From NCBI GenBank assembly GCA_030698495.1, contig JAUYKA010000005.1, positions 8,404-72,403 on the forward strand: a stretch of 64,000 nucleotides of DNA. The letters run 5' to 3'. This document shows positions 12,844 through 63,208 of this stretch, piece after piece; positions within the stretch are counted from its first letter, which is position 1, and every line of letters starts with the position of its first letter. Made by a program: the position numbers and the translations under genes. The notes beneath the pieces were generated by a model, which saw only the letters and a program-made list of their open reading frames with translations, was not told the origin of the DNA and did not search any database. This stretch comes from a bacterium (GTDB lineage Bacteria; Patescibacteriota; Andersenbacteria; UBA10190).

Positions 12844-12860
12844 ACCAACCAGCAGTAAAA

Positions 12861-13805: not shown

Positions 13806-13857
13806 ACTCCTATTGTAGAACCAAACTCGTTCTTAAGCCAGCCTAAAACAAACCGGA

Positions 13858-17995: not shown

Positions 17996-18110
17996 TAAAC
18001 TTAAAACTAAAAACTAAAAACTAAAAACTGCACCATAAAAAGAAAAAAGAACCGCGTAAAATCGTTCTTTTTCGTTTTTCACTTTACGTTTTGCGTTTTC
18101 TTATACCGCA
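17996..18110 (-). terminator. AAAAC-repeat hairpin family, 3' of the WbaP-like gene
   Basis: (AAAACT)x4 arm, central GC hairpin, GTTTTTCACTTTACGTTTTGCG arm. Confidence 0.4.
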
Positions 18111-19837: not shown

Positions 19838-20350
19838 GAAGACAGGTGAATGGCCGCTCTTTGTTCAAAGTTCGAGGCAACCCCTTAGGGGTTTACCCTG
19901 AGCTTGTCGAAGGGAGGAAAGTCCGGACACCTTATTGATCTTTTTCAATAAACGGGTGGCAGATAACGTCTGCCCGGAGCAATCCGAGGGACCGATACAA
20001 AATGGATAGATAGACACACGTGTATATCTATTTAATCGGCCAAGAGTGCAACAGAAACATACCGCTTTCACCCGCCGAAGCTTTACGCGAAGGCGGGCTA
20101 GTCCACTTCTTGTGGAGAGTAAGGTTGAAATCGTGAGGCCCGCCTTCGCGCGGGATACCCCTCGCTTCGGCGAGGCAAAGTAAGAGCTCACGCGGCCGCG
20201 CGGCAACGCGCGGACGGGGCAAGCCCCACCCGGTGCAACCTCAAGCAATTCCGCCTTAAAACGGAATAGGTAGAGGGCAAGAGGCGTACGGCGACGTGCG
20301 TCCCAGATAGATGGCCATTCCAGACAGAATCCGGCTTACAGCCTGTCTTC
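19838..20350 (+). ncRNA. rnpB: RNase P RNA (bacterial type A-like), about 513 nt with insertions
   Basis: P4 strands GGAGGAAAGTCCGGACACC (5') and ACAGAATCCGGCTTAC (3'). P1 pairs GAAGACAGG with CCTGTCTTC. Conserved blocks AGTGCAACAGAAAC and GGTAAGGTTGAAA are present. The region has no ORF and is GC-rich. Confidence 0.8.
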
Positions 20351-20409
20351 AAAAAAACCGCCCAGATTTTTGTCTGAGCTGTTTTTTTATGCCAACCAAA
20401 TAGATAATT

Positions 20410-21837
20410 TTAATATGCCCTGCCAAACACAACTCGTTGCCTGGACGGTTTCCCGCTCTTAATGCACAAACCCTTCTCTTTCTCCGCCTTAAAGGGAATA
20501 CATCGAATGGTTGCTTTCGTTTCCTCTTTTATTTGTCTTTCAATGGCAGCGTCTCCCGACCAATGCGCCAGCACATAGTTACCGGCGTTAATTTCACGCA
20601 CAAACTCATCCCACGTATCCACTCGGCGAGCCTTTGTCTCCAGCAACTTTTGGGATCGAAGAAGCAAATTGTTTTGGATGTCTTTAAGCATATTTTCTAC
20701 CGATTTTTTCACATCGTCATTCGCGACAATGCTCTTCTCTCCCGTATCTCTTCGCACCAGCACTACTTTATTATTCGCTAAATCCTTGGGTCCCAACTCA
20801 AGTCGTAGAGGCACCCCCTTCTTCTCCCACTCGTAAAATTTTTCTCCCGGCCTGACTTCCAACCGGTCATCAAAAATCGGATTGTATTTTTTAAGATGCC
20901 TGTACATTTTCTTGGCGGCATCCGTAACATCTGACGGGGCGCTATTGGCTATTGGCACGATAACAATTTTATGAGGCGCTATTTTTGGTGGCAAAACTAT
21001 ACCCTTATCGTCTCCATGGCTCATAACTAGGCCCCCGATAAGACGCGTACTGACTCCCCAGCTCGTATTGTAAACGTACTGTTGTGTCCCGTCTTCGCTC
21101 AAATACCGCACATTGAATGCTTTGGCGAAATGATCCGACAAATCATGGCTTGTACCCGATTGCAAAAACTTACCGTCGCGCATCAACGTTTCAATGGAAT
21201 ACGTGCTTAACGCGCCCGCGAACTTTTCACTCTCCGTCTTCTGTCCGTCAATAACCGCCATGGCCAAATGTTTTTCCGCAAAAGGCTTGTAAACTTTTTT
21301 CAGAATCTTAAGCGCGTATTGCCTGGCTTCTCTTTTTGTCGCGTGCGCCGTGTGCCCTTCCTGCCACAGGAATTCCGTCGTGCGCAAGAAAAGACGCGGC
21401 CGCATTTCCCAGCGCACCACATTCGCCCATTGATTGATACGCAGCGGCAAATCCCTGTACGAATGAATCCAACGCGAGAACGCGTCGTAAATAATCGTTT
21501 CCGAAGTTGGCCGAATCACCAAAGGTTCCGTCAGCTCCTTGCCTCCGCCGTACGTCACAACCGCCAGCTCCGGACTGAATCCTTTAATGTGCTCCGCTTC
21601 CTTTTGTAAAAACTTCTCCGGAATAAGCAACGGAAAGTAGGCGTTCTCCACCCCTTGTTTCTGGAATTGACTATCAAGTTCCTTCCGGATATTCTCCCAA
21701 ATTGCGTATCCATACGGCTTAATCACCATACAACCGCGCACCGACGAATTCTCCGCCAGATCCGCGGCCGTGATAACGTCCTGATACCACTGGGCGAAGT
21801 TTTCCGCTTGTGGAGTAATTTTTGTATTATTTGACAT
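20410..21837 (-). CDS. proS: Prolyl-tRNA synthetase (archaeal/eukaryotic-type class II, without the editing-domain insertion)
   Basis: 475 aa; class II aaRS motifs and C-terminal Zn-binding domain; N-terminus MSNNTKITPQAENFAQWYQDVI is typical of ProRS. Confidence 0.9.
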   Translation of the reverse strand: MSNNTKITPQAENFAQWYQDVITAADLAENSSVRGCMVIKPYGYAIWENIRKELDSQFQKQGVENAYFPLLIPEKFLQKEAEHIKGFSPELAVVTYGGGKELTEPLVIRPTSETIIYDAFSRWIHSYRDLPLRINQWANVVRWEMRPRLFLRTTEFLWQEGHTAHATKREARQYALKILKKVYKPFAEKHLAMAVIDGQKTESEKFAGALSTYSIETLMRDGKFLQSGTSHDLSDHFAKAFNVRYLSEDGTQQYVYNTSWGVSTRLIGGLVMSHGDDKGIVLPPKIAPHKIVIVPIANSAPSDVTDAAKKMYRHLKKYNPIFDDRLEVRPGEKFYEWEKKGVPLRLELGPKDLANNKVVLVRRDTGEKSIVANDDVKKSVENMLKDIQNNLLLRSQKLLETKARRVDTWDEFVREINAGNYVLAHWSGDAAIERQIKEETKATIRCIPFKAEKEKGLCIKSGKPSRQRVVFGRAY

Positions 21838-21952
21838 ATATCAATCGGCGTTGAGATTAAACAACCTGAACTAATTTAATCATTATAACCGGTTTATAAC
21901 AAGGTGAAATACGAATAAAGACTATTCCAACACGGACATTGAATTTTCCCTG

Positions 21953-21982
21953 AAACGGCTCAACCGTACGGATGAGCCGTTT
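21953..21982 (-). terminator. Hairpin AAACGGCTCAACCGTACGGATGAGCCGTTT abutting the stop codon of the wHTH gene
   Basis: Same conserved stem as the hairpins at 25506-25535 and 63174-63208. Confidence 0.5.
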
Positions 21983-22354
21983 CTATATCACCTCGTACCG
22001 CACTCCCCGTCCGGTATTGCCTTCCTGTTTGAGCTTCCCCCGGAGTTCCAGCTCTTCCAAATATCTGGTGGCCGTAGCATCGGATACTCCCGTTGCCTTT
22101 TGCACCTCATCGTTACTCACGCCGCCGTGCTCGCGCGCGTACGCCATAACCTGCGCCAAAATATTTTCTTTGCGCTCCTGATCCTGCCGCACACTGTCCG
22201 CCAGCTCCGCCGGCACCGCTCCGCCACCACCGGAGCCCGAATCGTCCGCGCCACTACCAACCAAACCCAAACCGCGCCGCCTCAAAAACCAAGCACCCGC
22301 GCCCGCTACAATAAACCCAACTATAAATCCCCAAATAAATCCATTCATAAACAA
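21983..22354 (-). CDS. Membrane-anchored winged-helix DNA-binding protein (hypothetical regulator)
   Basis: N-terminal TM helix, Gly/Ser linker, C-terminal wHTH (VSNDEVQKATGVSDATATRYLEELE). Confidence 0.45.
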   Translation of the reverse strand: MFMNGFIWGFIVGFIVAGAGAWFLRRRGLGLVGSGADDSGSGGGGAVPAELADSVRQDQERKENILAQVMAYAREHGGVSNDEVQKATGVSDATATRYLEELELRGKLKQEGNTGRGVRYEVI

Positions 22355-22363
22355 ATACCTAAC

Positions 22364-22945
22364 CTACTGCAAAAGCCTAAATGATGAAATAACTTGTCTG
22401 ACTTCCTTCACGTTTTTATCAAAATCTTTTTGAGGACACGTAAATGTGATTTGATAATGCTTTTGTGCCCTTACACTATCAACCAGTAATTGCCGGCCTT
22501 GTTGTATTATGCCATTTGAATCAGTTGCTTCTTCTTTAGCAACCCTCTCTACCGCCATATTCCCCAAAAGCATAATATCGTCCTTGCTTATTAAGCTACT
22601 CGGCGAATTACCTATATGTGTCCCCGCTACAATCTGATCCAATGTCATCATATCCGGTTTTAATTCTCCAATTTCAACTTTAAAATCATCTTTTGCGTTA
22701 TCAAAAGTTAAGTAAATAATATCCTCGTCTCCCGGTGCATTTTTTTCATAAGTAACCTTTACCCTCTTCCATGACGACGGGTATGTAAACTCAAAACCAT
22801 ACTTATTATTTTGATAGGTAACCGAACGACTCAAACCGATAGCGGACAAACCATTGTGACTGTAGAAATAGTAACCTCCACCCAAAACAATAGCCCCTAG
22901 CAACAACACCGCAACTGCCGATACATAGCCTCCCTGCTTATTCAT
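22364..22945 (-). CDS. Hypothetical membrane-anchored/secreted protein
   Basis: N-terminal signal anchor; no recognisable domain. Confidence 0.45.
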   Translation of the reverse strand: MNKQGGYVSAVAVLLLGAIVLGGGYYFYSHNGLSAIGLSRSVTYQNNKYGFEFTYPSSWKRVKVTYEKNAPGDEDIIYLTFDNAKDDFKVEIGELKPDMMTLDQIVAGTHIGNSPSSLISKDDIMLLGNMAVERVAKEEATDSNGIIQQGRQLLVDSVRAQKHYQITFTCPQKDFDKNVKEVRQVISSFRLLQ

Positions 22946-23077
22946 AACTCAATATTAACACTAACTAAAAATCTCCCCAAATAAACCCGCTCATAAAGTC
23001 AGTTTAGCATAAATTCGTAAGTGAAAATAAAATTCTATACGCCAAATTATGACTATTCAAACATCGGGGGTGAATTT

Positions 23078-23854
23078 CTATTTAAACCTCTCAAAGTACT
23101 TGTCAATTTCTCCTCTTAACTCAATGCCAACTCTTTCAAAACAATCTAATAGGTTCTTATAAGCATTTTTACCACCTAGAAAATCCCAAAATTCATCAGC
23201 AACCTTAAGCTCATTGGGTAAATCCAACATTCCTCTCATGGTCCAACGATTATAAGCCTGCGGTTCATATGGATTATATGGAATAGCAATATAAGTATGT
23301 ATGGATGCCTTCGGTCTTTCTACTAATATTACAGCAACCCATTCTAGTAGTGTGCGCTTGAATTCCTTAAAACCACCTGCATTTGGTTTCGCTGTTTTTA
23401 TATCAAAAAGATAGTAGTCGTCATTACCAGATTCAACCATTAGGTCTACTCTCGTTGGTTTAACATCTACTATTTTACCTTTTTGGCAAACTTTTCTTAT
23501 ACGCTCAATTTCCTTTTGTTTATCGGGTGAAACACTCGCAGTAGTCAGCCCGTCGATAATTTTCTGGATTTCAGTTTGAGCTTCACTGCTTATCTGATGC
23601 CCCACAATCACTTGTGACTCAGCCTTTTTGAAGTTTTTTTGAGCCAAAGCTAAACCAACTGGTTCAAAAATACTTGTTCCGAAATTTGTATTTAATGAAT
23701 GAATAAAAGAGTATAGAGCTAATCTATCCTTACCAAGTAATCTAGTATGGAATGGCATAACCGCCGGCTCTGGTTTGTAGTTCTGAAACTTGTTTCTAAG
23801 ACTAGTCTTTAAAACCTCCTCGACTTCCTTAATTTGTTTATTTGATATAGACAT
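23078..23854 (-). CDS. Putative type II restriction endonuclease (TdeIII-like family, tentative)
   Basis: 258-aa protein whose start lies 1 nt from the stop of the DNA methyltransferase gene. Low-GC region. Family assignment is from memory of RE_TdeIII-like motifs, not from a search. Confidence 0.45.
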   Translation of the reverse strand: MSISNKQIKEVEEVLKTSLRNKFQNYKPEPAVMPFHTRLLGKDRLALYSFIHSLNTNFGTSIFEPVGLALAQKNFKKAESQVIVGHQISSEAQTEIQKIIDGLTTASVSPDKQKEIERIRKVCQKGKIVDVKPTRVDLMVESGNDDYYLFDIKTAKPNAGGFKEFKRTLLEWVAVILVERPKASIHTYIAIPYNPYEPQAYNRWTMRGMLDLPNELKVADEFWDFLGGKNAYKNLLDCFERVGIELRGEIDKYFERFK

Positions 23855-23855
23855 A

Positions 23856-25442
23856 CTAAATTTGCTTGAGATGAAAAATTATCTCTGAATATGGGTTTCT
23901 GTCACGCTCTGTTCTATTTAAAACCGGCCGCTTAAATCTATTAACTATTTCCATACCCGCTTTTTCTGCAATAGAAGGATATAAGTCATATTTATCATTT
24001 GCAACCAGGAAAACATTGCGGTCGTTTGCCAAATACTTTTTGCAGTTGTTTAAAACAAAAGCAATACCTTCAACGTATGACATTCTAGCTTCCGCACCTT
24101 GTCCTCTATATAAGGGGCCAATTTCATATTCGTCCCTGCGCTCAAAGCCAAACAAATCATAAGCATAGGCATGCTGCTCATGATAATCAATCTGACCAAC
24201 ATAAGGCGGCGAAGTAAAAATACCAGCAATTTTCTTCTTCTGCAAAATTCCATACAGTGTTTTATTTCTCTTTTTCACTTCCTTAAATATATCAACTTGT
24301 CTCGAATCTGCCGGAAGAATAGCATAGTGACTACCTGTTTTTAGATTGTCATATGTTTTGAGTCGATAGACAGTATCAGTTGCGTAACGATCAAACCAGG
24401 TTTTTATAGAAAACAATGGCTTACAAATTTTCTTATGCTTCCAACAATAATAAGTGGCCAGTTGCGGTTCTTTTAGTGTCGCTAAATCCGAGTGGGTCGT
24501 AGCACGACACGACCTAATGGTCCTGCTTAAAATCACTGCTAATATCTTTTTGTTTTTTATATCCGTTACTTTCTTAACCAAATCAAAAGCATAATCAATC
24601 TCTTTTCTAACTCCGTTAATATACCACCTATCAAGAAATGTATTTGTTCCTTTTTGCTTTAACTCAATACTATACTTCTTAATTTGACGCTTATAAACAC
24701 TCAAAAATTCTTTTTCTTTTTCCTCTGCATACTGTTTCTCATTAATCTGTCCCCTGTTTACCTTGTATTTATACTCAGGGCTTGGAAAATACTTATTATT
24801 AAATACAGCCAACTCATTTAGTAGCTCATTTTCAAAAGTGGACATCATACTATCATTTTCATATCCAGCTATTAAGGTTTTAATCTTATCAACATCCTTA
24901 TCTAAAAGGTTAAAATCATAATCCAGCAGCTTAGTCTCCGTAACCATACAGTTAAAGTGCGATATATCTACACCAATCGCATGAATACCCATTTCGTTAG
25001 CCTGAACTAATGCTGTTCCCGAACCGGAAAACGGGTCAAGAACCACGTCTCCTTTTTTAAAATAAACATCCTTTTTGAAATCATCAGTATGGCCATCTAA
25101 AAAATATTCAACCAACTGCGGAATAAACTTACCTTTGTACGGATGAAGTCGATGAACATGTTTAGTCGTGTCTTTTTCACGAAGATGATCAAAAGACAAT
25201 GACCAATTCAAATCGTTGCCCAAACGTTTTTTATACACTAACTCCCGCTTCCCACGAAATGATTTATAGTAGCGCTCAAGATCAGTAACGCTGACATATA
25301 CACCACTTTCGTTAACCCTTTTCTTTACTTTTCCGTACTGAATTAAGTAAGAAATATTAGACTCGCTTATATCTCTTTCTAAAAAATCACTAGCCCATCG
25401 ACTAGCTTCCATAAGAGTTAATAATTTCGTGTTGCCATTCAT
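23856..25442 (-). CDS. DNA methyltransferase (alpha-class amino-MTase; SPPY motif suggests N4-cytosine or N6-adenine)
   Basis: Motif I DPFSGSGT and motif IV TSPPY, separated by about 290 aa (alpha-class order). Confidence 0.8.
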   Translation of the reverse strand: MNGNTKLLTLMEASRWASDFLERDISESNISYLIQYGKVKKRVNESGVYVSVTDLERYYKSFRGKRELVYKKRLGNDLNWSLSFDHLREKDTTKHVHRLHPYKGKFIPQLVEYFLDGHTDDFKKDVYFKKGDVVLDPFSGSGTALVQANEMGIHAIGVDISHFNCMVTETKLLDYDFNLLDKDVDKIKTLIAGYENDSMMSTFENELLNELAVFNNKYFPSPEYKYKVNRGQINEKQYAEEKEKEFLSVYKRQIKKYSIELKQKGTNTFLDRWYINGVRKEIDYAFDLVKKVTDIKNKKILAVILSRTIRSCRATTHSDLATLKEPQLATYYCWKHKKICKPLFSIKTWFDRYATDTVYRLKTYDNLKTGSHYAILPADSRQVDIFKEVKKRNKTLYGILQKKKIAGIFTSPPYVGQIDYHEQHAYAYDLFGFERRDEYEIGPLYRGQGAEARMSYVEGIAFVLNNCKKYLANDRNVFLVANDKYDLYPSIAEKAGMEIVNRFKRPVLNRTERDRNPYSEIIFHLKQI

Positions 25443-25505
25443 GATGTCTTTCCTAATATATCATTCCCCATACAAAAATCAAAAACCCCGTCCCCAGCCA
25501 ACAAT

Positions 25506-25535
25506 AAACGGCTCAAGCGGACGCTTGAGCCGTTT
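25506..25535 (-). terminator. Hairpin AAACGGCTCAAGCGGACGCTTGAGCCGTTT downstream of Fic
   Basis: 10-bp GC stem plus flanking A/T runs; conserved-stem family (see findings). Confidence 0.5.
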
Positions 25536-25544
25536 ATTATAAGT

Positions 25545-26435
25545 CTATTGTTTGTAACTAAACCCTTCCCCTATCTTCCACACACCCTTCTCCCGAAAAG
25601 CGGGAATAGACTGCCGCCGCGCCGCATTAGTTATCGCCGACGCCGAAAGATTATTTTTCTTAATATATTCAGACAAACTGACAATGTTCTCTCCTTTTAA
25701 ATAAGTCACCCGTTTGTACAGGGATTCAATCAACATCAAAGCTAATATCTTTTCCATTGTTTTGGTATTCTTTTTCTCCCGATAGTCATCAAACGCCCGA
25801 TAATAATTGGTTTTCTCTTTATTGCGTACAATTAGACGGGGAAATCCCAATCGCAAGAGTTGAAAATTAACTATAACCCGCCCAATGCGTCCGTTACCAT
25901 CATTAAACGGGTGAATACTTTCAAAATCCAAATGCCACTTGGCGATTTTATCTAAGAAATACTTATCCAATTCACTGGAGTACTCCAACATAATTTCATC
26001 TATCAAACGCTCCACGTGCTCCGGCGGAGGCGCTACATGAGTTCCTACCCGAACATATTCACCTGCCTTGCGCCAACGCCCGGCAATTGCATCATCAATT
26101 CCACCTATCAGCATCTTGTGCAAAAGCAAAATCAATTCTTTGGAAACCTCTTCTGTTATCGCCTTGCCTCGCTTGTAATCAACAACCTGAGCCAAATTTT
26201 TTGCCTCGAAAACCTCCCGCAACGATACGTCCCGTGCCAACTCCTGTTCCAGCAAAATCTTCTCCGTTTCTTTCAAAGTGAGAGTTGAATTTTCTATCGC
26301 ATTTGAGTTATAGACACTTTCAGGAATTTCCGCTTCATCAATCATGCTTAAGAGCGACTCTTTACCCTTTTTTAAGGCATCAAAATCAGCCTTTAGCGTC
26401 TTAATTTGCTCCCTAAATTGTTTGGTTGTTGCCAT
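25545..26435 (-). CDS. Fic/Doc family protein (AMPylase)
   Basis: Canonical Fic motif HPFNDGNGRIGR. Confidence 0.85.
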   Translation of the reverse strand: MATTKQFREQIKTLKADFDALKKGKESLLSMIDEAEIPESVYNSNAIENSTLTLKETEKILLEQELARDVSLREVFEAKNLAQVVDYKRGKAITEEVSKELILLLHKMLIGGIDDAIAGRWRKAGEYVRVGTHVAPPPEHVERLIDEIMLEYSSELDKYFLDKIAKWHLDFESIHPFNDGNGRIGRVIVNFQLLRLGFPRLIVRNKEKTNYYRAFDDYREKKNTKTMEKILALMLIESLYKRVTYLKGENIVSLSEYIKKNNLSASAITNAARRQSIPAFREKGVWKIGEGFSYKQ

Positions 26436-26564
26436 AATTACATTATATCAAATTCACGCGTTTTTGTCAAAACCACGTGAATTGCACCCAATAACAGCCC
26501 TTCATTCACGCGTTTTTCTACAAATTCCCCCCCTGTCCACACTCGGTGTGGACAGGGAAATCAT

Positions 26565-27275
26565 CTATTTCCTCATCAGCCCATTTTCCCGAAAGCTGAA
26601 CAGTTGCGTTTTGCTGACTACCACATGATCTAGTAATCCTATTCCCATCAATTTTCCCGCTTCAGTTATTTGTTTTGTCACCGCCAAATCCGCTTCGCTC
26701 GGATTGGGATCGCCGGAAGGATGATTGTGGCAAACAGCGATGCTGGCGGCGTGCCGTCTTATTGCCGCGTCAAATGTTTCGCGCGGATGCACTAAATTAG
26801 CGTTAAGCGTCCCGACACCAATCAAGTCCACCCCTAACACCCGGTTACGATTATCAAACGAGGCTACGAAAAAATGTTCTTTCTGCCAGTCGCCAATAAA
26901 TGGTTTTACCAGCCGGGCGATGTCCTCCGGTGCCGCCACCGCTTTTGACTTATTTCTCTTTACCTCACTATCAGTTTCCTCCCGCACCACCCGCCGGGCA
27001 ATTTCCAGACATGCTTTTAATTGCAGTGCTTTCGCCTGCCCCAATCCCGGCACTTTCTGTAACTCCTCAACTGAAGCCGATACTACACCTGCCAACGATC
27101 CAAAACAACTCAACAAATTCTGCGCTATCTGCATTACCGATAACCCCGCCGTCCCGCGACCAAGCACGACGGCAATCAACTCCTGTGCCGAAACACTGCC
27201 AGCGCCGTATTTTACCAAACGCTCCCGCGGCCTCTCCTCCACAGGCATGTCCCGCACCGTGAAATTTTGCTTCAT
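26565..27275 (-). CDS. radC: RadC-like JAB/MPN domain protein
   Basis: HNHPSGDPNPSEAD JAMM motif; N-terminal HhH; start MKQNFTVRDMPVEERPRERL (ATG at 27273-27275). Confidence 0.8.
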   Translation of the reverse strand: MKQNFTVRDMPVEERPRERLVKYGAGSVSAQELIAVVLGRGTAGLSVMQIAQNLLSCFGSLAGVVSASVEELQKVPGLGQAKALQLKACLEIARRVVREETDSEVKRNKSKAVAAPEDIARLVKPFIGDWQKEHFFVASFDNRNRVLGVDLIGVGTLNANLVHPRETFDAAIRRHAASIAVCHNHPSGDPNPSEADLAVTKQITEAGKLMGIGLLDHVVVSKTQLFSFRENGLMRK

Positions 27276-27319
27276 GATTTTATCTACTGAATTTCCCCGC
27301 CCTAAGCCGCCATGATTAA

Positions 27320-27610
27320 TTAGTAAATATTTACCCCCCCACCAAGAACAAAGAGTACCCATACCACCAGAAGAAATCCAACCCAGGCTACACTACCATA
27401 CAAAGCAAATAGATTTATCAAAAAAAATCTACTGGGCTTTTCCAAGTTATTAAGTCGTATTAAATAAAAAAACTCTAATAAAGCAACAGCCACTGGAATA
27501 ATAAACGCAAATATTAAATCATTCTCATTAAAAAAAACAAGGATCGTTAGTGCAACACTAACCACAGCTAAAATTACCGCGACTGCTAAATGTATTTTTA
27601 TCATTCTCAT
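27320..27610 (-). CDS. Hypothetical small membrane protein
   Basis: 96 aa with three hydrophobic helices. Confidence 0.35.
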   Translation of the reverse strand: MRMIKIHLAVAVILAVVSVALTILVFFNENDLIFAFIIPVAVALLEFFYLIRLNNLEKPSRFFLINLFALYGSVAWVGFLLVVWVLFVLGGGVNIY

Positions 27611-27763
27611 AAAACTCTTTATATTTTACAACGTTTCTCTAATTGCGGCTATCATTTCCCGTAACGGTAACGCTTTCTCCTGATCAACCCTACCCCCGCG
27701 TATTGACCCGGCAAAATATATATACATATTTTTATTCTATCCCACCCATACAAAAAACAATAA

Positions 27764-27782
27764 ATCCAACACCCGATGTTAA
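27764..27782 (+). repeat. Direct repeat ATCCAACACCCGATGTTAA, copy 1
   Basis: Identical 19-mer at 29022-29040; extended similarity of about 30 bp. Confidence 0.7.
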
Positions 27783-27879
27783 TATTACACCGTAACACTA
27801 CTGTGCATTAACCACACTAGCCGTTTGGGTATCGTGTTTTTAGTGCTATGATTAAAGAAATTATCATTAATTTTATTCT

Positions 27880-28986
27880 ATGGAAAATATGGGGATGGAC
27901 AATCAAATAAATGAACAGCAGGAAGGTCAGTTTAATAACCAGCAAGCGGGTCAGCCTACTGAAGTTATTAACGAAATAAAGCCTAGAAAAAATTATACAT
28001 TGGCTATTGTTCTATTGGTTCTTGTTATATTTATAATGGTTTTTGCGGGAGGAGTTTTCGCTTATCTGTATTTTTCTTCCAAGACTAATAATATTGTGGC
28101 TGATGTGCCGATGGATACGAGCGCGCCCGTAGAATCTGCTACGCCAAGTCCCTCTGGTGAGTTGTCTGTAGTGTTTACACCTCCATATCCGGTTGTGTTT
28201 TCGGAAAGGGACAATACGCCAAACTTTGGCGGCGCGGGAAAATTTTCCCTAACTGGAGTTACGATAGGTGATTATGAGGTTACGGAAAGTAATAAGATGT
28301 CTTTCTGGGACGGATTTAAATACACATACGACGTGGGGCAGAAAATTAATTCCGTTGCATTAGAATTTAAAATTAACGTCACTGAGGGAGGCCAGCTTCC
28401 TCAAAGTATTAGAATGATTTCCGTGGATGAAGCGGGGGGTGAAGACAGGACACCACCGATAAACAGAGATTATTTGTATGATGGCCATAAGCCGATGAAT
28501 GATTTTGCGACGACTGACTCTACTGTCGAGAATGCACAGGTTGTTTTTGCAGTGCCGGAAGGCGCGACTTCATTTATGTTTACGAGCGGGGGAAGTTCAG
28601 AAATTAAGTTTAGTGTGGCCGTAAACAACGGACAGATATCAGTTAACCAGGCAAATCTTGGTGAAACCAGTACATTCACGAAATATATGACTGGAAATAT
28701 TGGGATTGATGTGGTTGAAGTGATGATTAATAGAGAAGGAGGAGTGCTGGCAGGAAATTTTGTGTCGGATAAAAAAGTCGGGATTATAAAGGGGACAGTG
28801 GATAGTGCCGGAAATTATTTTATGCAGTTAACGTTTCTAGAAGATAATCAGGAGTACGGAGTAATGACGGGCGCTCTTACGCTAGTGGATGATATAACTG
28901 GTAATTGGCGGGCGGCGGGTTCACTTGAGGATGTTCCGTTCACTTTGACCAAGGCGCAAATACGAATACCAGCCTTTGCTCAGTAG
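27880..28986 (+). CDS. Hypothetical membrane-anchored extracellular protein (the only substantial plus-strand CDS apart from rpmB)
   Basis: Q/N-rich N-terminus, single TM helix (LAIVLLVLVIFIMVFAGGVFAYLYF), and a 300-aa beta-rich ectodomain. Confidence 0.6.
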   Translation: MENMGMDNQINEQQEGQFNNQQAGQPTEVINEIKPRKNYTLAIVLLVLVIFIMVFAGGVFAYLYFSSKTNNIVADVPMDTSAPVESATPSPSGELSVVFTPPYPVVFSERDNTPNFGGAGKFSLTGVTIGDYEVTESNKMSFWDGFKYTYDVGQKINSVALEFKINVTEGGQLPQSIRMISVDEAGGEDRTPPINRDYLYDGHKPMNDFATTDSTVENAQVVFAVPEGATSFMFTSGGSSEIKFSVAVNNGQISVNQANLGETSTFTKYMTGNIGIDVVEVMINREGGVLAGNFVSDKKVGIIKGTVDSAGNYFMQLTFLEDNQEYGVMTGALTLVDDITGNWRAAGSLEDVPFTLTKAQIRIPAFAQ

Positions 28987-29021
28987 AAGAGATAAAAAAA
29001 TTTGTAAGGAAAAATAAGCCA

Positions 29022-29040
29022 ATCCAACACCCGATGTTAA
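29022..29040 (+). repeat. Direct repeat ATCCAACACCCGATGTTAA, copy 2
   Basis: See copy 1. Confidence 0.7.
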
Positions 29041-29176
29041 CATCGCAAATCGCGTGAATTTTAGTGAAAAACGGGTCTCATTCACGCGTTTTTCCTGATT
29101 TTTCCTACTTCACATACTCCACTGAACCACCCTTAATCTTCTTGTTTTTCAAGCAATCAACTGCCATAGGCACCAT

Positions 29177-29533
29177 CTATGACAAACCTTCAATACCACC
29201 GTCCGGCAAATCATCCGCCTCAAACCACTCTATTTCTTCATCCGTAGTAGTAGAAAAGTCGTTGGTATCCCCTTTATAAACAATGGCGTATAAATCTACC
29301 CGCCAACCTTTTGCTTTTAGCTTCCCGAAATATTTCCAGTCTTTCTTTTTGGTTTTCACGCCGGCTTCTTCTTTTACCTCCCTGACAATACAGTCACTGC
29401 TTTCCTCACCGCGCTCAATCCTGCCACCAATTCCATTCAGCTTGCCCGCTTGCCAGTCTGGCCTATTTTTATGCATCAATAAAACCTTTAAAAGATCATG
29501 GCTAAAAATAAAACCGAGAGTATAAGCTTTCAT
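29177..29533 (-). CDS. NUDIX hydrolase
   Basis: Nudix box GIGGRIERGEESSDCIVREVKEEAGV. Confidence 0.75.
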   Translation of the reverse strand: MKAYTLGFIFSHDLLKVLLMHKNRPDWQAGKLNGIGGRIERGEESSDCIVREVKEEAGVKTKKKDWKYFGKLKAKGWRVDLYAIVYKGDTNDFSTTTDEEIEWFEADDLPDGGIEGLS

Positions 29534-29653
29534 ACTCTAACTATATCAGAACCTGACACTCCTATCTGATCCGATCCAGTGCCTCGTTCACCATTTTGTC
29601 CGCTATCTTGTTTTTCTCCCTGGCCACACGATATGGTTTATTTCCGGAGTTAG

Positions 29654-29947
29654 TTATTCCTTAAACTTGAATGAGCGCTTGTTAGCTTCTTGCAGGATTT
29701 TTAATGTTGCCTGCACAGACAAATTGTCGCTTGGTAACAGCACCAGACGGTCGCCTAATTCATCGGCAAGAGGACTTAAAAATTCATCAGTCCACGACGG
29801 CGACAGGGTCAGCACCCCGGAAAAATCTATTTCCAAAACATCATCCCGTGGTAAATCACGTAAGGTAGTCCGAAACGCTTTAAGGGCCTCACTTCCCAAC
29901 TCCCGGGTAATTAAAGTGGTTCCGAATTTTTCCAACATCAATTTCAT
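29654..29947 (-). CDS. STAS-like domain protein (DUF4325-like; anti-sigma-factor-antagonist fold)
   Basis: 97 aa; secondary-structure pattern and size are consistent with the STAS/DUF4325 family (assignment from memory). Sits immediately downstream of a GHKL ATPase. Confidence 0.45.
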   Translation of the reverse strand: MKLMLEKFGTTLITRELGSEALKAFRTTLRDLPRDDVLEIDFSGVLTLSPSWTDEFLSPLADELGDRLVLLPSDNLSVQATLKILQEANKRSFKFKE

Positions 29948-29970
29948 AAATTTATATATTATCTTATTGC

Positions 29971-30690
29971 TTAAAAATCAATCTTGGCCAAACACCCGTT
30001 TATCGTATTTACTCCCCTAACAACTTTAAAGTCTTTATTGTCATTCTGTAGACGCACTTCAGCATCTCCGCTGGTAAAAAACAGATTAATCGGATTACCG
30101 ACTACAACTTCCCGAACCAATTTCAAACCGTTGCCTCGTTTCTCCGGCGCCCGGCCGGAAATAAATTCAGTAAAAGCCACTTTTACCGCGGCAACATGGT
30201 TAGACAACTCCGGACGAACTTGACGCAATGTCCTTAGAATACCAAGTCCTCTGTCAGCTAATACAATTACCCCCTTCTTAATATCATACCCAAAAAATAT
30301 TCCGGGCACATCCGGCCATTTGCCTAAATTATGAGCAAATGAATTATCACCTATTTCACCGGCAATCAAGACAATAAGTGAATATAACTCTTCAAATCCA
30401 GGCTTGGCCATAAGTTCACGCTCCATTTTTACCAGCCTTGCTTGAAAGACAGCACTTGTCTGACAATAGAATCTCTCCGGAAATTCAGTTTTGTCACCAG
30501 CCCATTCGAAAGCGAATTTTAAAAGATCACTCGCGAAAATTTCGAGATCTTTCTCTCGATAATATCTGTGTGTTCCGCCTTCCTTTTTAATGGCAACCAA
30601 TTTTCCTCTTTCATCCCACCGGCGCAGGGTATCAATTGAAACACCAAGTATTTCAGCCGCTTGACTGATTGTTAACAGTTTTCTTTCCAT
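29971..30690 (-). CDS. MerR-type HTH fused to a GHKL (histidine-kinase-like / anti-sigma-factor-kinase-like) ATPase domain
   Basis: N-terminal LTISQAAEILGVSIDTLRRWDERGKL (MerR HTH). N-box GEIGDNSFAHN, G1 box DRGLGI and G2 box GNGLKLVRE. Confidence 0.6.
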   Translation of the reverse strand: MERKLLTISQAAEILGVSIDTLRRWDERGKLVAIKKEGGTHRYYREKDLEIFASDLLKFAFEWAGDKTEFPERFYCQTSAVFQARLVKMERELMAKPGFEELYSLIVLIAGEIGDNSFAHNLGKWPDVPGIFFGYDIKKGVIVLADRGLGILRTLRQVRPELSNHVAAVKVAFTEFISGRAPEKRGNGLKLVREVVVGNPINLFFTSGDAEVRLQNDNKDFKVVRGVNTINGCLAKIDF

Positions 30691-30832
30691 ATCTACACTA
30701 TAACATACCCTATAAATCTATGCAATTATTACATAAAACTATGCATTATTACTATAATCTATGCATTTTATTGATATTTATGGGCAAATTTCATACTTTC
30801 AGCTCATAAATTCACGCGTTTTTCCTGATTTT

Positions 30833-31237
30833 CTATTTCTCCCGATCCAGCGCTTCATTCACTAGCCTATCAGCTATCTTATTTTTATCCCGCGTCACGT
30901 GCGTAAAAGAAGTTGTCTCAAACTTATCCGCTAGTTCCTTCGCCTCAACAAATAACTGTTTTAATCCGTTATTTTTCACCCGATAATTTCCTTTCAACTG
31001 CTCCACCACCAACTGGCTGTCCAGAAAACATTTTATCTCGGACACCCCCGCCTCCAGCGCCATAGCTAATCCTTTTATCAACGCTTTATATTCCGCCTGA
31101 TTGTTTGTCGTCTCGCCGATATACTCGCCGTACTCCAGCGCCTGTTCCCCTTCCACCCTAAGCACTAAACCGATTCCCGCCGGCCCCGGGTTCCCTCTGG
31201 CTCCTCCATCGGTAAATAAAGTGGCTTTTTTTGACAT
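30833..31237 (-). CDS. rnhA: Ribonuclease HI
   Basis: TDGGARGNPG, NNQAEY and DSQLVV catalytic DEDD motifs. Confidence 0.8.
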   Translation of the reverse strand: MSKKATLFTDGGARGNPGPAGIGLVLRVEGEQALEYGEYIGETTNNQAEYKALIKGLAMALEAGVSEIKCFLDSQLVVEQLKGNYRVKNNGLKQLFVEAKELADKFETTSFTHVTRDKNKIADRLVNEALDREK

Positions 31238-31240
31238 ATT

Positions 31241-32941
31241 TTATTTTTGAAATGTTATTTTCATCTCGCCCGCTCGCGCCGCGTCCCGGACGTTAAACTG
31301 CAGCCTTCTTCTGCCTTGCCATTGATTTTCGGTTAATTCTCCCAATATATCAATAGATCCTTTGGTAATTTTAGCCGCGGCCATCTCGTGTGCCAATCCG
31401 AAACCGATGCCGTCAACTAATTCGTTGTTTATAACCAGCCCCAACTTGGCGTGATCCGAATTTTTTCCCACCGCCCGCCACTCGTGTAGCTGTATGTTTT
31501 GTGCCACCAGTTGCGGCCTTTTATTCCCCTCCCCGAACGGCGCGAACTCTTCTATCACCCGCACCGTCTGTTTATCTAAAATTTCCGGCGCCACCAGTGC
31601 TTCCGCTTCCAAAGTCAGCAGTCGTTCCCGCTCTTCAATAACTGCCCCGGCTTCCATCCCCCGCATCGCCTCGGTGAACATCGGCAGATTACTCACGTCT
31701 ATCGTCAACCCCGCCGCCTGACTGTGCCCGCCCAGTTTTACCAGCATACTTTGTGCCTGCCGCAGTATTTCCAGCACATTTGTTCCTTCCGGGCTGCGCG
31801 CCGAACCTACTCCGCCCCGCCCGAAGACCACCGCCGGTTTGCCATATTTATCCGCCAGACGATTAGCCGCCAAACCAACCACGCCGGGCGGCCAGTCTTC
31901 TCCGCTGGCTACAATTACCGCGCCGCATCCCGCCAGTTGTTTTTCCGCTTCCCGCACTACCTTCTGTGTAACCGTCTGCCGCCTTCTGTTTAACAGATTC
32001 AACTCGGCCACCAGCTTGTCCGCTTTGGCTTCGTCTTTTGTCATTAACAGCTCCAGCGCCGGCTGGGCGTGATCCATTCGGCCGGCCGCGTTCAGCATCG
32101 GTACTATTTTAAACACCACGTCCTCCGTCGATACTTCCTTGCCGGCCAACCCGACAAAATCAATCAGTTTCCGCAGGCCCACGCGCTTGGTCCGCCGTAA
32201 AACATCCAAACCGAAACGTACAATTGCCCGATTTTCTCCCAGCACCGGCACCGAATCGCCCAGAGTTCCCAACATCGCCAAATCCAACAGCCACTTTACT
32301 CTATCGGTGTCTCCTCTCCAAACCGAGCGATTATCATTAGACAAAGCCTGCGCCACTTTCCACGCCGTGCCGGCGCCGCATAAATAAGGCCAAGAGTAGC
32401 TGCCAACCGGATAATTGGGATGGATAATAGCAACCGCCGCCGGCTTCACCCTCCCCGGCGTATGATGATCGACTATAACCGTGTCTATTTTCTGGCGCTT
32501 CAGCCACTTAACTTCTTCCGCCGCGGTAACGCCGCAGTCAACCGTAACCAGCAGCGACATCTCCGGCGCCAGCCTTTCCAGCACTTCTTTATTAAGTCCG
32601 TATCCGTCATCTATCCGGTGCGGAATATATGGACTTACCCGCGCGCCGTGCTCGCGCAAAGTTTCCACTAAAATAGCCGTACTACTGATGCCGTCGGCGT
32701 CATAATCGCCGTAAACTATGATCTGCTCCTTATCCTTTATGGCCCGAAAAATTCTGTCCACGCCCGCGGCCATATCGGGGAAATTTCCCGGATCATGAAT
32801 ATCGTCTTTATACGAGGAACGAAAAAAACCGGCCGCCCCATCGGCGCCGACTCCCCGACGCACTAGCAAAAATCCCCTTAATTCTTCCGTCGAACTGATC
32901 GCGCCGCGCGCGTCTGCCGTCACTACCCACTGTCTATTCAT
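31241..32941 (-). CDS. recJ: Single-stranded-DNA-specific exonuclease RecJ
   Basis: DHH motifs (YGDYDADGISS, DHH) and DHHA1 domain; 566 aa. Confidence 0.85.
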   Translation of the reverse strand: MNRQWVVTADARGAISSTEELRGFLLVRRGVGADGAAGFFRSSYKDDIHDPGNFPDMAAGVDRIFRAIKDKEQIIVYGDYDADGISSTAILVETLREHGARVSPYIPHRIDDGYGLNKEVLERLAPEMSLLVTVDCGVTAAEEVKWLKRQKIDTVIVDHHTPGRVKPAAVAIIHPNYPVGSYSWPYLCGAGTAWKVAQALSNDNRSVWRGDTDRVKWLLDLAMLGTLGDSVPVLGENRAIVRFGLDVLRRTKRVGLRKLIDFVGLAGKEVSTEDVVFKIVPMLNAAGRMDHAQPALELLMTKDEAKADKLVAELNLLNRRRQTVTQKVVREAEKQLAGCGAVIVASGEDWPPGVVGLAANRLADKYGKPAVVFGRGGVGSARSPEGTNVLEILRQAQSMLVKLGGHSQAAGLTIDVSNLPMFTEAMRGMEAGAVIEERERLLTLEAEALVAPEILDKQTVRVIEEFAPFGEGNKRPQLVAQNIQLHEWRAVGKNSDHAKLGLVINNELVDGIGFGLAHEMAAAKITKGSIDILGELTENQWQGRRRLQFNVRDAARAGEMKITFQK

Positions 32942-63173: not shown

Positions 63174-63208
63174 AAAACGGCTCAGGCGTGCGCTTGAGCC
63201 GTTTTTTC
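63174..63208 (+). terminator. Terminator hairpin AAAAACGGCTCAGGCGTGCGCTTGAGCCGTTTTTT after rpmB
   Basis: GC stem GGCTCA/TGAGCC plus T6; bidirectional (A5 upstream). Confidence 0.65.

Follow-up and report, generated by a model that had tools for sequence, protein, structure and literature searches.

A variable spot between rnhA and rnpB in an Andersenbacteria genome was probably filled by several independent events

Is the GC-poor stretch between proS and recJ in the genome of an uncultured Candidatus Andersenbacteria (CPR) a single block of acquired DNA? The first-pass annotation had proposed one island bounded by these two genes, at positions 21983-31240 of the 64,000-nucleotide stretch analyzed here (the window). 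The ORFs that it listed are all present at the coordinates it gave. Two other samples (Logan assemblies) show the same gene arrangement, which excludes an assembly artefact.

We compared the locus with that of five relatives, whose RecJ is 45-52% identical to the window RecJ. All five (L004, L005, L006, L059, and L060) share the order eno-IVP-recJ-rnhA-(0-2 genes)-rnpB-Bac_transf (sugar transferase). In each of them rnhA follows recJ, directly in four and after a 175-aa ORF in L059, which also carries two different genes at the same rnhA/rnpB spot. The genes that frame the comparison are the following:

19838-20354, plus strand: rnpB, RNase P RNA (Rfam RF00010, 170.6 bits); conserved right-hand flank, adjoining rnhA in the five relatives
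20410-21837, minus strand: proS, archaeal-type ProRS (Pfam ProRS-C_1, tRNA-synt_2b, HGTP_anticodon; GC3 0.544)
30833-31237, minus strand: rnhA, RNase HI (Pfam RNase_H and RVT_3; GC3 0.541); conserved left-hand flank, outside the accessory segment

Because recJ-rnhA adjoins rnpB across the five relatives, rnhA is conserved backbone. Relative to them, the extra segment of the window spans 20355-30832 (about 10.5 kb), from the rnhA stop codon to rnpB, with proS inside; no ProRS match was found in L004-L006 over a stretch that begins 10 kb upstream of recJ and ends at least 8.8 kb downstream of that gene. The stretch is missing at the recJ-rnhA-rnpB locus of all five, so the region is variable, as had been claimed. 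Its proposed limits do not hold, since rnhA falls outside the extra segment and proS, an essential gene of native composition, falls within it. That a single old island was acquired horizontally between proS and recJ (21983 to 31240) and then lost its integrase is very improbable: the absence of the whole stretch from the relatives would fit, as would the mean GC (0.41 vs 0.49) and the several defence-type genes detected by PADLOC, but rnhA belongs to the syntenic backbone shared with all relatives and proS, outside the proposed block, is likewise missing at their locus.

Base composition argues in the same direction. GC is 0.408 for 21983-31240 against 0.492 in the rest of the window, and 0.356 for the restriction-modification (R-M) genes, which had been described as more AT-rich than their flanks and indeed have a GC3 4-5 sd low. 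The region as a whole is thus low in GC but not uniformly so. According to GC3 z-scores computed against the 55 other genes of the window, rnhA (+0.2), RadC (+0.2), proS (+0.3), and the 123-aa HTH gene (+1.7) are in the native range. They are interleaved with strongly deviating genes, namely the 96-aa ORF (-5.9), the endonuclease (-5.3), the methyltransferase (-4.6), the MerR-HTH gene (-4.0), the PsbP-like gene (-3.7), and the 368-aa gene (-3.1), while NUDIX (-2.3), Fic (-1.8), and STAS (-1.4) are milder. This alternation of native genes with genes 3-6 sd low, together with the flanking repeats that several modules have of their own, speaks against one acquisition.

Nor is the block delimited by an integrase, a tRNA, or terminal repeats. 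No tRNA was found in the whole window and no integrase domain among the genes scanned with Pfam, in agreement with the first-pass annotation, which had seen no such boundary and had turned to two hairpins as possible delimiters. The elements concerned are these:

21953-21982, minus strand: terminator-type hairpin after the 123-aa gene (-22 kcal/mol, z -6.3)
25506-25535, minus strand: terminator-type hairpin after Fic (-27.9 kcal/mol, z -8.8), 87% identical to the 21953 hairpin
29080-29102, unstranded: first of two identical 23-nt direct repeats (ATTCACGCGTTTTTCCTGATTTT), lying downstream of NUDIX; next comes an inverted CGCGTGAAT...ATTCACGCG pair
30810-30832, unstranded: second copy of this repeat, directly behind the stop codon of rnhA

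The first hairpin is real, but its motif (AAACGGCTCA-N10-TGAGCCGTTT) is generic; because it recurs at 25506-25535 and, far outside the region, at 63175-63204, it is no marker of an island boundary. The second (30809-30832) forms no such structure (-2.4 kcal/mol, z 0.16) and was rejected as a hairpin; it is one copy of the 23-nt repeat, which is present in two exact copies in the window and never in shuffled sequences.

The clearest of the AT-rich units consists of two genes:

23078-23854, minus strand: Type II restriction endonuclease (REase) of the TdeIII family, 258 aa (PF09520, RE_TdeIII, full length, 317.8 bits, E 6e-95; PADLOC REase_II; GC3 0.293)
23856-25442, minus strand: DNA methyltransferase, 528 aa (Pfam N6_N4_Mtase; PADLOC MTase_II PDLC03249, full length, E 3e-220)

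The HMM search thus names the 258-aa protein, previously a putative endonuclease, as a restriction enzyme. In the methyltransferase, DPFSGSGT (motif I) lies near residue 145 and TSPPY (motif IV) near residue 408. The N6_N4_Mtase profile, a beta-class model, matches with its C-terminal (FxGxG) part only (profile positions 135-216), at residues 73-165, and the order is therefore that of the alpha class, as proposed. The SPPY motif suggests that the enzyme probably methylates cytosine at N4 (m4C), which would fit a GGNCC-type recognition site better than GANTC; statistics of site avoidance do not tell the two apart (O/E 0.78 for GGNCC, 0.76 for GANTC). The TAG of the methyltransferase gene is separated from the ATG of the endonuclease gene by a single base (23855), confirming the 1-nt distance reported earlier. 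With the methyltransferase gene placed first, coupled translation would keep restriction from outrunning methylation.

This unit is found well beyond the present locus. The best 120 of 5715 REase homologues are 75-81% identical to the window protein and are spread across named CPR lineages, while the best non-self RecJ match reaches only 52%, which supports the view that the R-M genes are foreign. In L007-L012 the REase homologue is directly preceded by a 524-aa methyltransferase homologue, and the compact two-gene unit recurs across many CPR lineages in unrelated housekeeping contexts. Similarity at the DNA level (68-71%) is limited to 25232-23074 of the window. No flanking duplication surrounds the unit in three other loci, and here it is bracketed by the generic hairpin only.

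RadC and further genes downstream and upstream of it are the following:

25545-26435, minus strand: Fic protein, 296 aa (Pfam Fic, E 1.4e-20; PADLOC PDC-S04, E 1.9e-37, and SoFic, E 8.5e-28)
26442-26470, minus strand: Fic promoter, perfect TTGACA-17-TATAAT (12/12 consensus positions), with one AAAAACGCGTGAAT copy in the spacer
26565-27362, minus strand: RadC, full-length housekeeping type (UPF0758 N-domain, HhH, and JAB; Pfam RadC and UPF0758_N; GC3 0.54)
27320-27610, minus strand: 96-aa hydrophobic ORF, lowest GC3 of the region, no family match; called as a 94-aa gene in the Logan assemblies
29177-29533, minus strand: NUDIX hydrolase, 118 aa (Pfam NUDIX, E 2.4e-11; PADLOC PDC-S07, E 7e-12; GC3 0.429)

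Pfam, NCBIfam, and PADLOC agree with the earlier naming of Fic, NUDIX, RNase HI, and RadC. Fic, of class II type, has HPFNDGNGRIGR as its active-site motif and, N-terminally, the inhibitory-helix motif SNAIEN. The AAAAACGCGTGAAT motif occurs four times, always within the region (26452, 26504, 29080, and 30810). RadC had been listed among mostly poorly conserved or defence- and mobilome-associated genes; its match to NF000642 (233 bits vs a cutoff of 180) identifies the full-length housekeeping type and not the short mobilome type. This match starts at residue 46, and the true start is likely M30, at 27275.

Three other genes and the repeats around two of them complete the inventory on this side of the kinase/STAS pair:

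21983-22354, minus strand: 123-aa protein comprising a hydrophobic N-terminal segment, a linker rich in Gly, and a winged HTH (Pfam FaeA, HTH_24, HTH_IclR at residues 60-120; GC3 0.607)
22364-22945, minus strand: PsbP-like exported or membrane-anchored protein, 193 aa (Pfam PsbP, PsbP_2; GC3 0.366)
22974-22997, minus strand: 24-nt pseudo-copy of the 5' end of the 123-aa gene (TTTATGAGCGGGTTTATTTGGGGA vs TTTATGAATGGATTTATTTGGGGA at 22328-22351), bracketing the PsbP-like gene
27752-27785, unstranded: left copy of a 34-nt direct repeat (D4) bracketing the 368-aa gene; 82% identity, 20 nt exact, spacing 1258 nt
27880-28986, plus strand: 368-aa membrane-anchored protein, no family match (GC3 0.393)
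29010-29043, unstranded: right copy of D4

The 123-aa gene likely starts at the ATG at 22348 (the Logan gene call is 121 aa). The 368-aa gene is the only plus-strand gene of the region, and the sign of the GC skew is reversed across it. Comparison of the region with itself gave repeat scores of 23, 20, 18, 17, 17, 16, 15, and 15; in shuffles the top score averaged 13.9 and never exceeded 19. The exact 20-mer of D4 scores 20, above that maximum. Both repeats are short, and the 24-nt one (D12; 88% identity, spacing 646 nt, score 15) is borderline against the shuffles.

The last module, a kinase/STAS pair, is highly conserved and has the following parts:

29562-29627, minus strand: pseudo-copy of the rnhA end, that is, the last 21 codons and the stop codon (VAREKNKIADKMVNEALDRIR before the stop); downstream arm of an imperfect target duplication around the pair
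29654-29947, minus strand: STAS-like (DUF4325) partner, 97 aa (weak DUF4325 match, E 0.008); Ser51 of its TLSPSW motif is invariant
29971-30690, minus strand: 239-aa protein with a MerR-type HTH (Pfam MerR, MerR_1, HTH_17 at residues 5-52) and a predicted divergent GHKL (Bergerat-fold) ATPase/kinase domain
30715-30766, minus strand: three direct operator-like repeats, ATGCATAGATT, ATGCATAGTTT, and TTGCATAGATT, at -76, -56, and -35 from the kinase ATG

The pair had been recognized as an HTH-GHKL protein with a STAS partner; both are present, and the details are a MerR-type HTH, a putative GHKL domain, and a DUF4325 STAS. Pfam finds no match in the C-terminal 166 residues of the window HTH-GHKL protein. 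Its AF2 model (pLDDT 62.6) has the N-domains of Hsp90, TRAP1, and GRP94 as top Foldseek PDB matches (E 2e-4, TM about 0.29), residues E112, N116, D146, G148, G150, and G186 (N-box, G1, and G2) are invariant, and distant family members give weak, sub-threshold matches to HATPase_c and HATPase_c_2. The mediocre model, the conserved motifs, and the sub-threshold HMM matches together suggest the GHKL assignment. For the partner, the orthologue in L052 matches DUF4325 above the cutoff (35.9 bits, E 6e-9). Of 45 loci, 44 include downstream sequence, and in each of these the kinase gene is followed by the STAS gene, directly so in 43; in L035 a GIY-YIG ORF lies between them.

Among 4718 HTH-GHKL homologues, the best 120 are 75-84% identical to the window protein, and across CPR lineages the pair shows 70-84% identity. 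Copies in other loci match that of the window at 70-80% identity, whereas the RadC, RnhA, and 123-aa HTH proteins next to them reach only 41-54%. The GC of the pair tracks that of the host (r 0.68). Like the R-M unit, the pair occurs on its own and in unrelated contexts in other genomes, which again argues against a single island.

The duplication around the pair (D1) is 66 nt long and 73% identical to 30833-30898, with a spacing of 1271 nt. By tblastn, RnhA residues 113-132 are 75% identical to the pseudo-copy (E 3e-5), which keeps the frame and the stop codon; seven codon changes are synonymous and six mostly conservative. Imperfect host duplications of 14 to 311 nt, with 86-100% identity, flank the pair in seven independent loci (L027/28, L031, L033, L035, L042, L043/44, and L052). 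The pair would have entered by recombination leaving an imperfect target duplication ("insertion with long target duplication"); the same route is probable for the PsbP-like and 368-aa genes, and no integrase or transposase would have taken part in the entry of the modules.

These scars also bear on an improbable alternative, in which the segment is ancestral chromosome, its low GC is due to small genes under weak constraint, and the relatives lost or relocated theirs. The relatives are too distant to fix polarity, four genes of the segment have native composition, and RadC, rnhA, and a gene like the 123-aa HTH gene adjoin the pair in some other CPR loci, hinting at an old loose neighbourhood. 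Against this, the rnhA pseudo-copy and the further target duplications read as insertion scars, the REase and HTH-GHKL proteins are 75-84% identical to those of other CPR lineages when the best RecJ is at 52%, the R-M DNA similarity ends exactly at the borders of the gene pair, and a GC3 4-5 sd low in long, well-conserved genes is unlike relaxed selection on short ORFs. As for polarity, proS, the 123-aa HTH gene, and RadC could have moved in here or out elsewhere, as the nearest relatives are distant and the window lineage may be their outgroup.

How might the pair work? The last operator-like repeat overlaps the -35 element of its promoter, and the three-repeat layout and the promoter are kept in other loci of the pair. 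The repeat sequence (GCATAG vs GTAG) co-varies perfectly with HTH residues 14 and 20, which supports that the HTH would bind the three repeats over its own promoter. The closest characterised relatives are CapK/CapS; by analogy with these and with SpoIIAB/SpoIIAA, the GHKL domain would bind or phosphorylate Ser51 of the STAS partner. The pair would then be a mobile, autoregulated kinase-substrate switch. We hold it possible, though doubtful, that it is instead a toxin-antitoxin-like addiction module or abortive-infection sensor and not a transcriptional regulator, with a toxic or effector kinase, STAS as antidote, and tight autorepression and mobility serving its own maintenance. The compact, autoregulated two-gene operon with its three-site promoter and the high mobility with insertion scars are consistent with this, and R-M methyltransferase genes are frequent neighbours of the pair (HsdM of type I in L020 and L035, Mod of type III in L028); VapKSC, a TA-type anti-phage system, is related to it (PMC13373217). 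However, the pair is not accompanied by a nuclease gene or any other gene recognisable as a toxin, a single weak relative (53%) was found among 2.9 million viral contigs, and PADLOC matches are limited to the HTH of the kinase.

Taken together, the spot from the rnhA stop codon (30833) to rnpB (20354) was probably filled by several independent events, by the module entry and with the kinase-substrate switch set out above, and not by one island. Its native-composition genes are proS, the membrane-anchored winged-HTH protein, and the full-length RadC, interleaved with AT-rich, self-contained modules: the R-M unit, Fic with its own consensus promoter, the PsbP-like gene, the 368-aa surface protein, NUDIX, and the HTH-GHKL/STAS pair. 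This very conserved pair is the most interesting part of the region and appears to hop between related genomes; its high conservation could in part be due to strong purifying selection acting on a regulator inherited vertically. The region would thus be a patchwork in which native genes stand among selfish or defence modules, each acquired separately.

The first-pass annotation had described a single low-GC island at 21983-31240, between proS and recJ. Comparison with relatives shows that this reading is wrong, as are its boundaries. Apart from identical copies, the closest RecJ proteins share only 45-52% identity, and a RecJ scan of genome contigs returned one truncated 43% locus only; synteny was instead based on a homologue search and the contigs it yielded. 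The contigs of five relatives (L004, L005, L006, L059 and L060) all carry glycolysis genes, eno, IVP, recJ and rnhA in this order, followed by the RNase P RNA and then by a Bac_transf sugar transferase and GT4 genes. The matching backbone of the window lies at 33447...31241, 30833-31237, 19838-20354 and 18101-19555. In four of the five relatives the gap between rnhA and rnpB is empty, save for one short ORF call (59-97 aa, no family match) in three of them, and the window holds approximately 10.5 kb at this junction (20355-30832). The synteny of the relatives thus makes rnhA a backbone gene and places proS within the extra segment. At the same junction, L059 contains a nucleoside 2-deoxyribosyltransferase gene and a 185-aa ORF (12698-13874), unrelated to the cargo of the window, which points to a recurrent insertion hotspot. 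The recJ-to-proS gene order is also found on contigs of two other sequencing runs and is therefore not an assembly artefact. The features discussed below are as follows.

Features of the region and its flank
31241-32941: recJ, backbone gene next to rnhA
29971-30690, minus strand: putative kinase gene of the kinase/STAS pair (239 aa, MerR-type HTH and GHKL-like domain)
29654-29947, minus strand: STAS partner gene (97 aa)
23856-25442, minus strand: methyltransferase gene (528 aa)
23078-23854, minus strand: endonuclease gene (258 aa)
21983-22354: HTH123, winged-HTH gene (123 aa)

In L004-L006, neither the upstream flank of recJ (10 kb for L004 and L006, 74 nt for L005) nor the downstream one (about 9-10 kb) contains a homologue of ProRS, RadC or HTH123. 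The five relatives are far removed from the window lineage and could all be sister to it; they do not fix the polarity of the genes with native composition. Three side observations concern the backbone itself. A 23S rRNA IVP-like four-helix-bundle gene (PF05635) lies directly upstream of recJ in the window (32948-33376) and in four relatives, by family match in L006, L059 and L060 and by 67% similarity in L004 (L005 has no upstream sequence); its product is 67-72% identical to the window copy and is better conserved than RecJ. The RNase P RNA measures 517 nt against a model of 367 positions, which indicates large ribozyme insertions in the window lineage (relatives, 363 to 512 nt). In L006 and L059, rnpB is inverted with respect to recJ.

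We then compared the third-position GC content (GC3) of each gene with the values of 55 further genes in the window (mean 0.530, sd 0.045).

GC3 z-scores of genes in and next to the region
96-aa ORF: -5.9
endonuclease gene: -5.3
methyltransferase gene: -4.6
MerR-HTH gene: -4.0
PsbP-like gene: -3.7
368-aa gene: -3.1
NUDIX gene: -2.3
Fic gene: -1.8
STAS gene: -1.4
rnhA: +0.2
RadC gene: +0.2
proS: +0.3
HTH123: +1.7

The composition of the region is a mosaic that includes native-type genes. The block as a whole is missing at the locus in the five relatives, yet it is not uniformly deviant, and with essential genes amid the cargo GC alone gives the wrong boundaries. Nearly all genes of the window (GC 0.479) lie on the minus strand, and the plus-strand GC skew is about -0.3 over all 64 kb. 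It rises to +0.26 only over the lone plus-strand gene at 27880-28986, so that the skew tracks the coding strand (G-rich third positions) and not merely the direction of replication.

The gene content of the earlier annotation fared better. The listed ORFs are present as described, and profile searches bear out the families of the Fic, RadC, NUDIX, MerR-type HTH and RNase HI proteins. The Fic protein (296 aa; Pfam Fic, E 1.4e-20) carries HPFNDGNGRIGR, which matches the HxFx(D/E)GNGRxxR active-site motif, and RadC, with 233 bits for NF000642 (cutoff 180), is a full-length protein of the housekeeping type. The absence of a tRNA or integrase boundary also stands: there is no tRNA or tmRNA gene in the 64 kb, none of the genes of the region contains a recombinase domain, and the hallmarks of a classical integrase-mediated island (integrase or recombinase, tRNA/tmRNA or att boundary) are missing from what these scans covered. 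Like defence islands and variable hotspots, the region clusters an R-M system, Fic (PDC-S04/SoFic-like), NUDIX (PDC-S07-like; PADLOC) and the kinase/STAS regulator between conserved genes, and a relative (L059) has other cargo at the same spot. It differs from them in that the essential proS and the housekeeping RadC gene sit amid the cargo and that recombinase and tRNA anchor are absent.

Two hairpins had been proposed as island delimiters. The one at 21953-21982 does form a strong fold (-22 kcal/mol, z -6.3), but its motif recurs at 63175, and the sequence at 30809-30832 does not fold (-2.4 kcal/mol, z 0.16); neither serves as a boundary. The AAACGGCTCA-N10-TGAGCCGTTT terminator hairpin also has a degenerate copy, with 3 mismatches, at 20355-20384, exactly between the rnpB end and the proS stop. 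Another motif, ATTCACGCGTTTTT, has four copies in the 64 kb, always in intergenic DNA of the region, and may act as an operator, a terminator or a recombination site.

Copies of ATTCACGCGTTTTT
26452-26465
26504-26517
29080-29093
30810-30823

One copy lies inside the spacer of the perfect TTGACA-17-TATAAT promoter of Fic. The motif is sometimes arranged in CGCGTGAAT...ATTCACGCG inverted pairs, and similar CGTGAAAA...TTTTCACG hairpins precede the kinase/STAS cassette in two metagenome loci (L014 and L043). Integron attC-like sites were considered for the CGCGTGAAT motif and rejected: there is no integron integrase and no attC consensus, and the motif sits in a promoter spacer.

The call of an R-M system was right. 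The 258-aa endonuclease matches a restriction-enzyme family, RE_TdeIII (PF09520), over profile positions 2-242 of 242 (317.8 bits, cutoff 27.2; E 6e-95), and an identical protein bears the NCBI name of a TdeIII-family enzyme. A single base separates the stop codon (TAG) of the adjacent DNA methyltransferase gene from the endonuclease ATG, as first noted. The methyltransferase matches Pfam N6_N4_Mtase and PADLOC MTase_II (E 3e-220), and its 528 residues contain the AdoMet motif DPFSGSGT (around residue 145) and the catalytic motif TSPPY (around residue 408). Motif I comes before motif IV, the long intervening stretch being the target-recognition region, and the beta-ordered Pfam N6_N4_Mtase model aligns only by its C-terminal part (positions 135-216, residues 73-165), which confirms the earlier alpha-class assignment. 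SPPY is the usual form in N4-cytosine methyltransferases. CPR lineages are known to rely on R-M rather than CRISPR.

We found 5715 homologues of the endonuclease. The best 120 are 75-81% identical, compared to 52% for the best RecJ, and their NCBI labels include Gracilibacteria, Kaiserbacteria, Taylorbacteria, Woesebacteria, Paceibacterota, Parcubacteria and even "archaeon". In three independent genomes (R-M loci L007-L012), a 524-aa methyltransferase gene lies 2-5 nt upstream of the endonuclease gene, in unrelated housekeeping surroundings (holB, frr, ABC transporter). DNA similarity between the window and these loci (68-71%) is confined to 25232-23074 and does not extend past the endonuclease stop codon. 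In every host, the flanks are less AT-rich than the unit, by 13.5 points in the window. On these comparisons, the unit is a compact two-gene unit that appears to circulate horizontally. Flanking duplications around it in the three other genomes did not exceed the shuffle level. A viral origin was rejected, as IMG/VR contains no relative of the endonuclease and only one 53% relative of the kinase, and PHROGs matches were generic.

TdeIII itself is TDE0911 of Treponema denticola (PMC12878829), and a TdeIII-like system was earlier inferred to have moved into H. pylori, e.g., PeCan4 (PMC3467074). The unit of the window resembles the T. denticola system (TDE0911 endonuclease, TDE0909 methyltransferase) in its full-length PF09520 match and adjacent methyltransferase gene. 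It differs in its CPR host and in an unusually uniform subfamily, with 75-81% identity across many CPR lineages for the best 120 of the 5715 homologues. The recognition sequence of TdeIII is GGNCC (REBASE/Pfam). The hmmscan library calls PF09520 RE_TdeIII, but the precomputed Pfam table calls it HinfI; family membership thus does not fix specificity, and the family probably spans enzymes of differing specificity. Palindrome avoidance does not separate the candidate sites either: GGNCC (O/E 0.78) and GANTC (0.76) each show mild depletion, which is stronger for GGCC and CTNAG. A PDB sequence search returned no relative of the endonuclease.

The kinase/STAS pair is very conserved. The 239-aa protein has 4718 homologues, of which the best 120, drawn from many CPR lineages, are 75-84% identical; 108 of these 120 are exactly 239 aa long (range 235-251 aa). 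Among 45 metagenome loci, the 97-aa STAS gene lies downstream of the kinase gene in all 44 that have downstream sequence, directly so in 43. At L035, the pair is otherwise intact with a 94-aa ORF (4739-5023), GIY-YIG-like by sequence appearance only, between the two genes, and RadC and type I HsdM genes follow it. Where the neighbouring RadC, RnhA or HTH123 proteins are only 41-54% identical to those of the window, the kinase of the same loci is 73-76% identical. The genes downstream of the pair vary (LemA, HsdM, type III Mod, SNF2, RadC).

The kinase has an HTH at residues 5-52 and a GHKL-like fold at approximately 80-239, separated by about 25-45 residues and with no STAS domain. Its AF2 model (pLDDT 62.6) shows an alpha/beta sandwich after the HTH, for which the best Foldseek matches in the PDB are the N-domains of Hsp90, TRAP1 and GRP94 (E 2e-4, TM only about 0.29). 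Residues E112 and N116 (N-box), D146, G148 and G150 (G1) and G186 (G2) are invariant. Pfam gives no GHKL match for the window protein, which is too divergent from the SpoIIAB/RsbW type for detection by HATPase_c_2; its more distant relatives P0466, P0470 and P0499 match HATPase_c or HATPase_c_2 at E 0.002-0.02, below cutoff. A PDB sequence search with the kinase, profile included, returned HTH matches only. The MerR-HTH protein also matches TIGR01764 and the IS607 HTH, but an IS607-like serine recombinase or excisionase was rejected on the C-terminal GHKL-like motifs and fold, which are not those of a recombinase. Across the GHKL family (P0393-P0470) the N-terminal domain is swapped, being a MerR HTH, a MarR-type wHTH, cytidylyltransferase-like, or without HTH (about 190-200 aa).

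The window STAS protein scores 16.4 bits against DUF4325 (PF14213), below the cutoff of 23, and its orthologue in L052 scores above it (35.9 bits, E 6e-9). A single-sequence AF2 model has low confidence (pLDDT 51) and a beta-alpha pattern compatible with STAS. Ser51 (TLSPSW) is invariant in 26 STAS sequences, partners at 45-46% identity included.

Upstream of the kinase gene, three direct repeats (30715-30766) are located at -76, -56 and -35, the last overlapping the promoter -35 element. The other loci examined keep this layout, except L053, the most divergent of them, where it is not evident. Residues 20 and 14 of the HTH are D and I/F where the repeats read GCATAG (the window, L020, L032/37 and L052, which is 50% identical), and N and Y in all 18 loci with (T/G/A)GTAG repeats. 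With no exceptions in 23 loci (the window and the L013-L052 set), this co-variation is good evidence that the HTH would bind its own operator.

We also observed scars of insertion around the pair. Just after the STAS gene, at 29562-29627, lies a 66-nt pseudo-copy of the rnhA 3' end (73% identity), 1271 nt from the real end. It keeps the reading frame and stop, and its codon changes relative to the real end are synonymous in 7 cases and mostly conservative in the other 6. This coding-like pattern indicates that both copies evolved as coding sequence and suggests that one arm came with the insert from a diverged or related donor, rather than by duplication in situ. Imperfect duplications of host sequence surround the pair in seven further independent loci.

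Flanking duplications of the kinase/STAS pair in other loci
14-24 nt, tight against the cassette: L027/28, L033, L042, L052
54 nt: L035
83 nt: L031
311 nt: L043/44 (ABC-transporter gene 3' end and terminator)

Other repeats were found within the region. A 34-nt repeat (20 nt exact) flanks the 368-aa gene on both sides, a perfect 23-nt repeat has copies after rnhA and after NUDIX, and a 24-nt copy of the HTH123 5' end, borderline alone against shuffles, brackets the PsbP-like gene. Self-comparison repeat scores were 23, 20, 18, 17 and lower, against shuffles with a mean top score of 13.9 and a maximum of 19.

Insertion with long target duplication has been described by Nobusato, Furuta and Kobayashi for R-M systems inserted without integrase or transposase (PMC2853133). 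Such events leave direct repeats of more than 30 bp, often overlapping a gene 3' end, with a single-copy target in insert-free genomes; the published repeats are near-identical, e.g., 44/46 and 417/423 (PMC2853133). Likewise, the 66-nt rnhA end is repeated here and the relatives, distant as they are, have a single rnhA end before rnpB. In contrast, the cargo is the kinase/STAS pair and the arms are only 73-91% identical.

CapK/CapS and VapKSC are the closest characterised systems to the pair. CapK is an HTH-STAS-GHKL protein, CapS a STAS protein with a C-terminal DNA-binding wHTH, and VapKSC is related to them; the kinase activity is activated by ssDNA or DNA damage and the adjacent operon is controlled (Chambers et al., EMBO J 2026; PMC13373217). 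The pair shares with these systems the arrangement of two adjacent genes, kinase then STAS protein, the N-terminal HTH, here joined to a putative GHKL domain of anti-sigma-factor-kinase type, and a frequent neighbourhood of R-M or immune genes (PMC13373217, section 7). An absolutely conserved STAS serine lies near residue 50 in each (Ser51 here, S54 in CapS, S48 in VapS; PMC13373217). However, the 239-aa protein is too short for an internal STAS domain, and its partner is a bare 97-aa STAS-like domain (DUF4325) without wHTH, so the pair is not a strict member of the CapK/CapS family. DNA binding would then have to reside in the kinase, as the operator/HTH co-variation also suggests. Neither a fixed downstream operon nor a VapC-like toxin accompanies the pair. 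The SpoIIAB/SpoIIAA and RsbW/RsbV partner switches combine a GHKL serine kinase with a single-domain STAS substrate, as the pair may do, and distant family members have weak HATPase_c_2 matches; here, no sigma factor target is present and the kinase is fused to a DNA-binding domain.

By analogy with these systems, our best mechanistic guess is a kinase-substrate switch that would act on Ser51. Jointly, the observations allow a reading that we offer only tentatively, as one rather unlikely to be right in full: the pair would be a mobile regulatory cassette, uncharacterised so far and spread across the CPR, that amounts to a pared-down relative of CapK/CapS with DNA binding on the kinase. The kinase would repress its own promoter through the three phased repeats, and phosphorylation or binding of STAS Ser51, possibly in response to DNA damage or ssDNA, would switch its state. 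The pair would spread between genomes by target-duplicating recombination, without a recombinase, and would land preferentially next to genes of DNA repair (rnhA, RadC) and of R-M systems, with a possible influence on their expression.

The region is real but ordinary in kind, a variable chromosomal spot that carries an R-M system and further genes of defence type. It illustrates that a low-GC "island" of a streamlined CPR genome can be a mosaic, and it contains one TdeIII-type R-M unit that seems to circulate almost unchanged through many CPR lineages. The part most worth attention is the putatively autoregulated HTH-GHKL/STAS cassette with its apparently recombinase-free scars. The pair is very conserved and apparently mobile, with a clear putative operator code, and would add a smaller architecture, and the CPR as hosts, to the range of kinase-substrate regulators recently described with CapK/CapS. 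Its insertion scars suggest gene mobility without a recombinase in organisms that take up environmental DNA.
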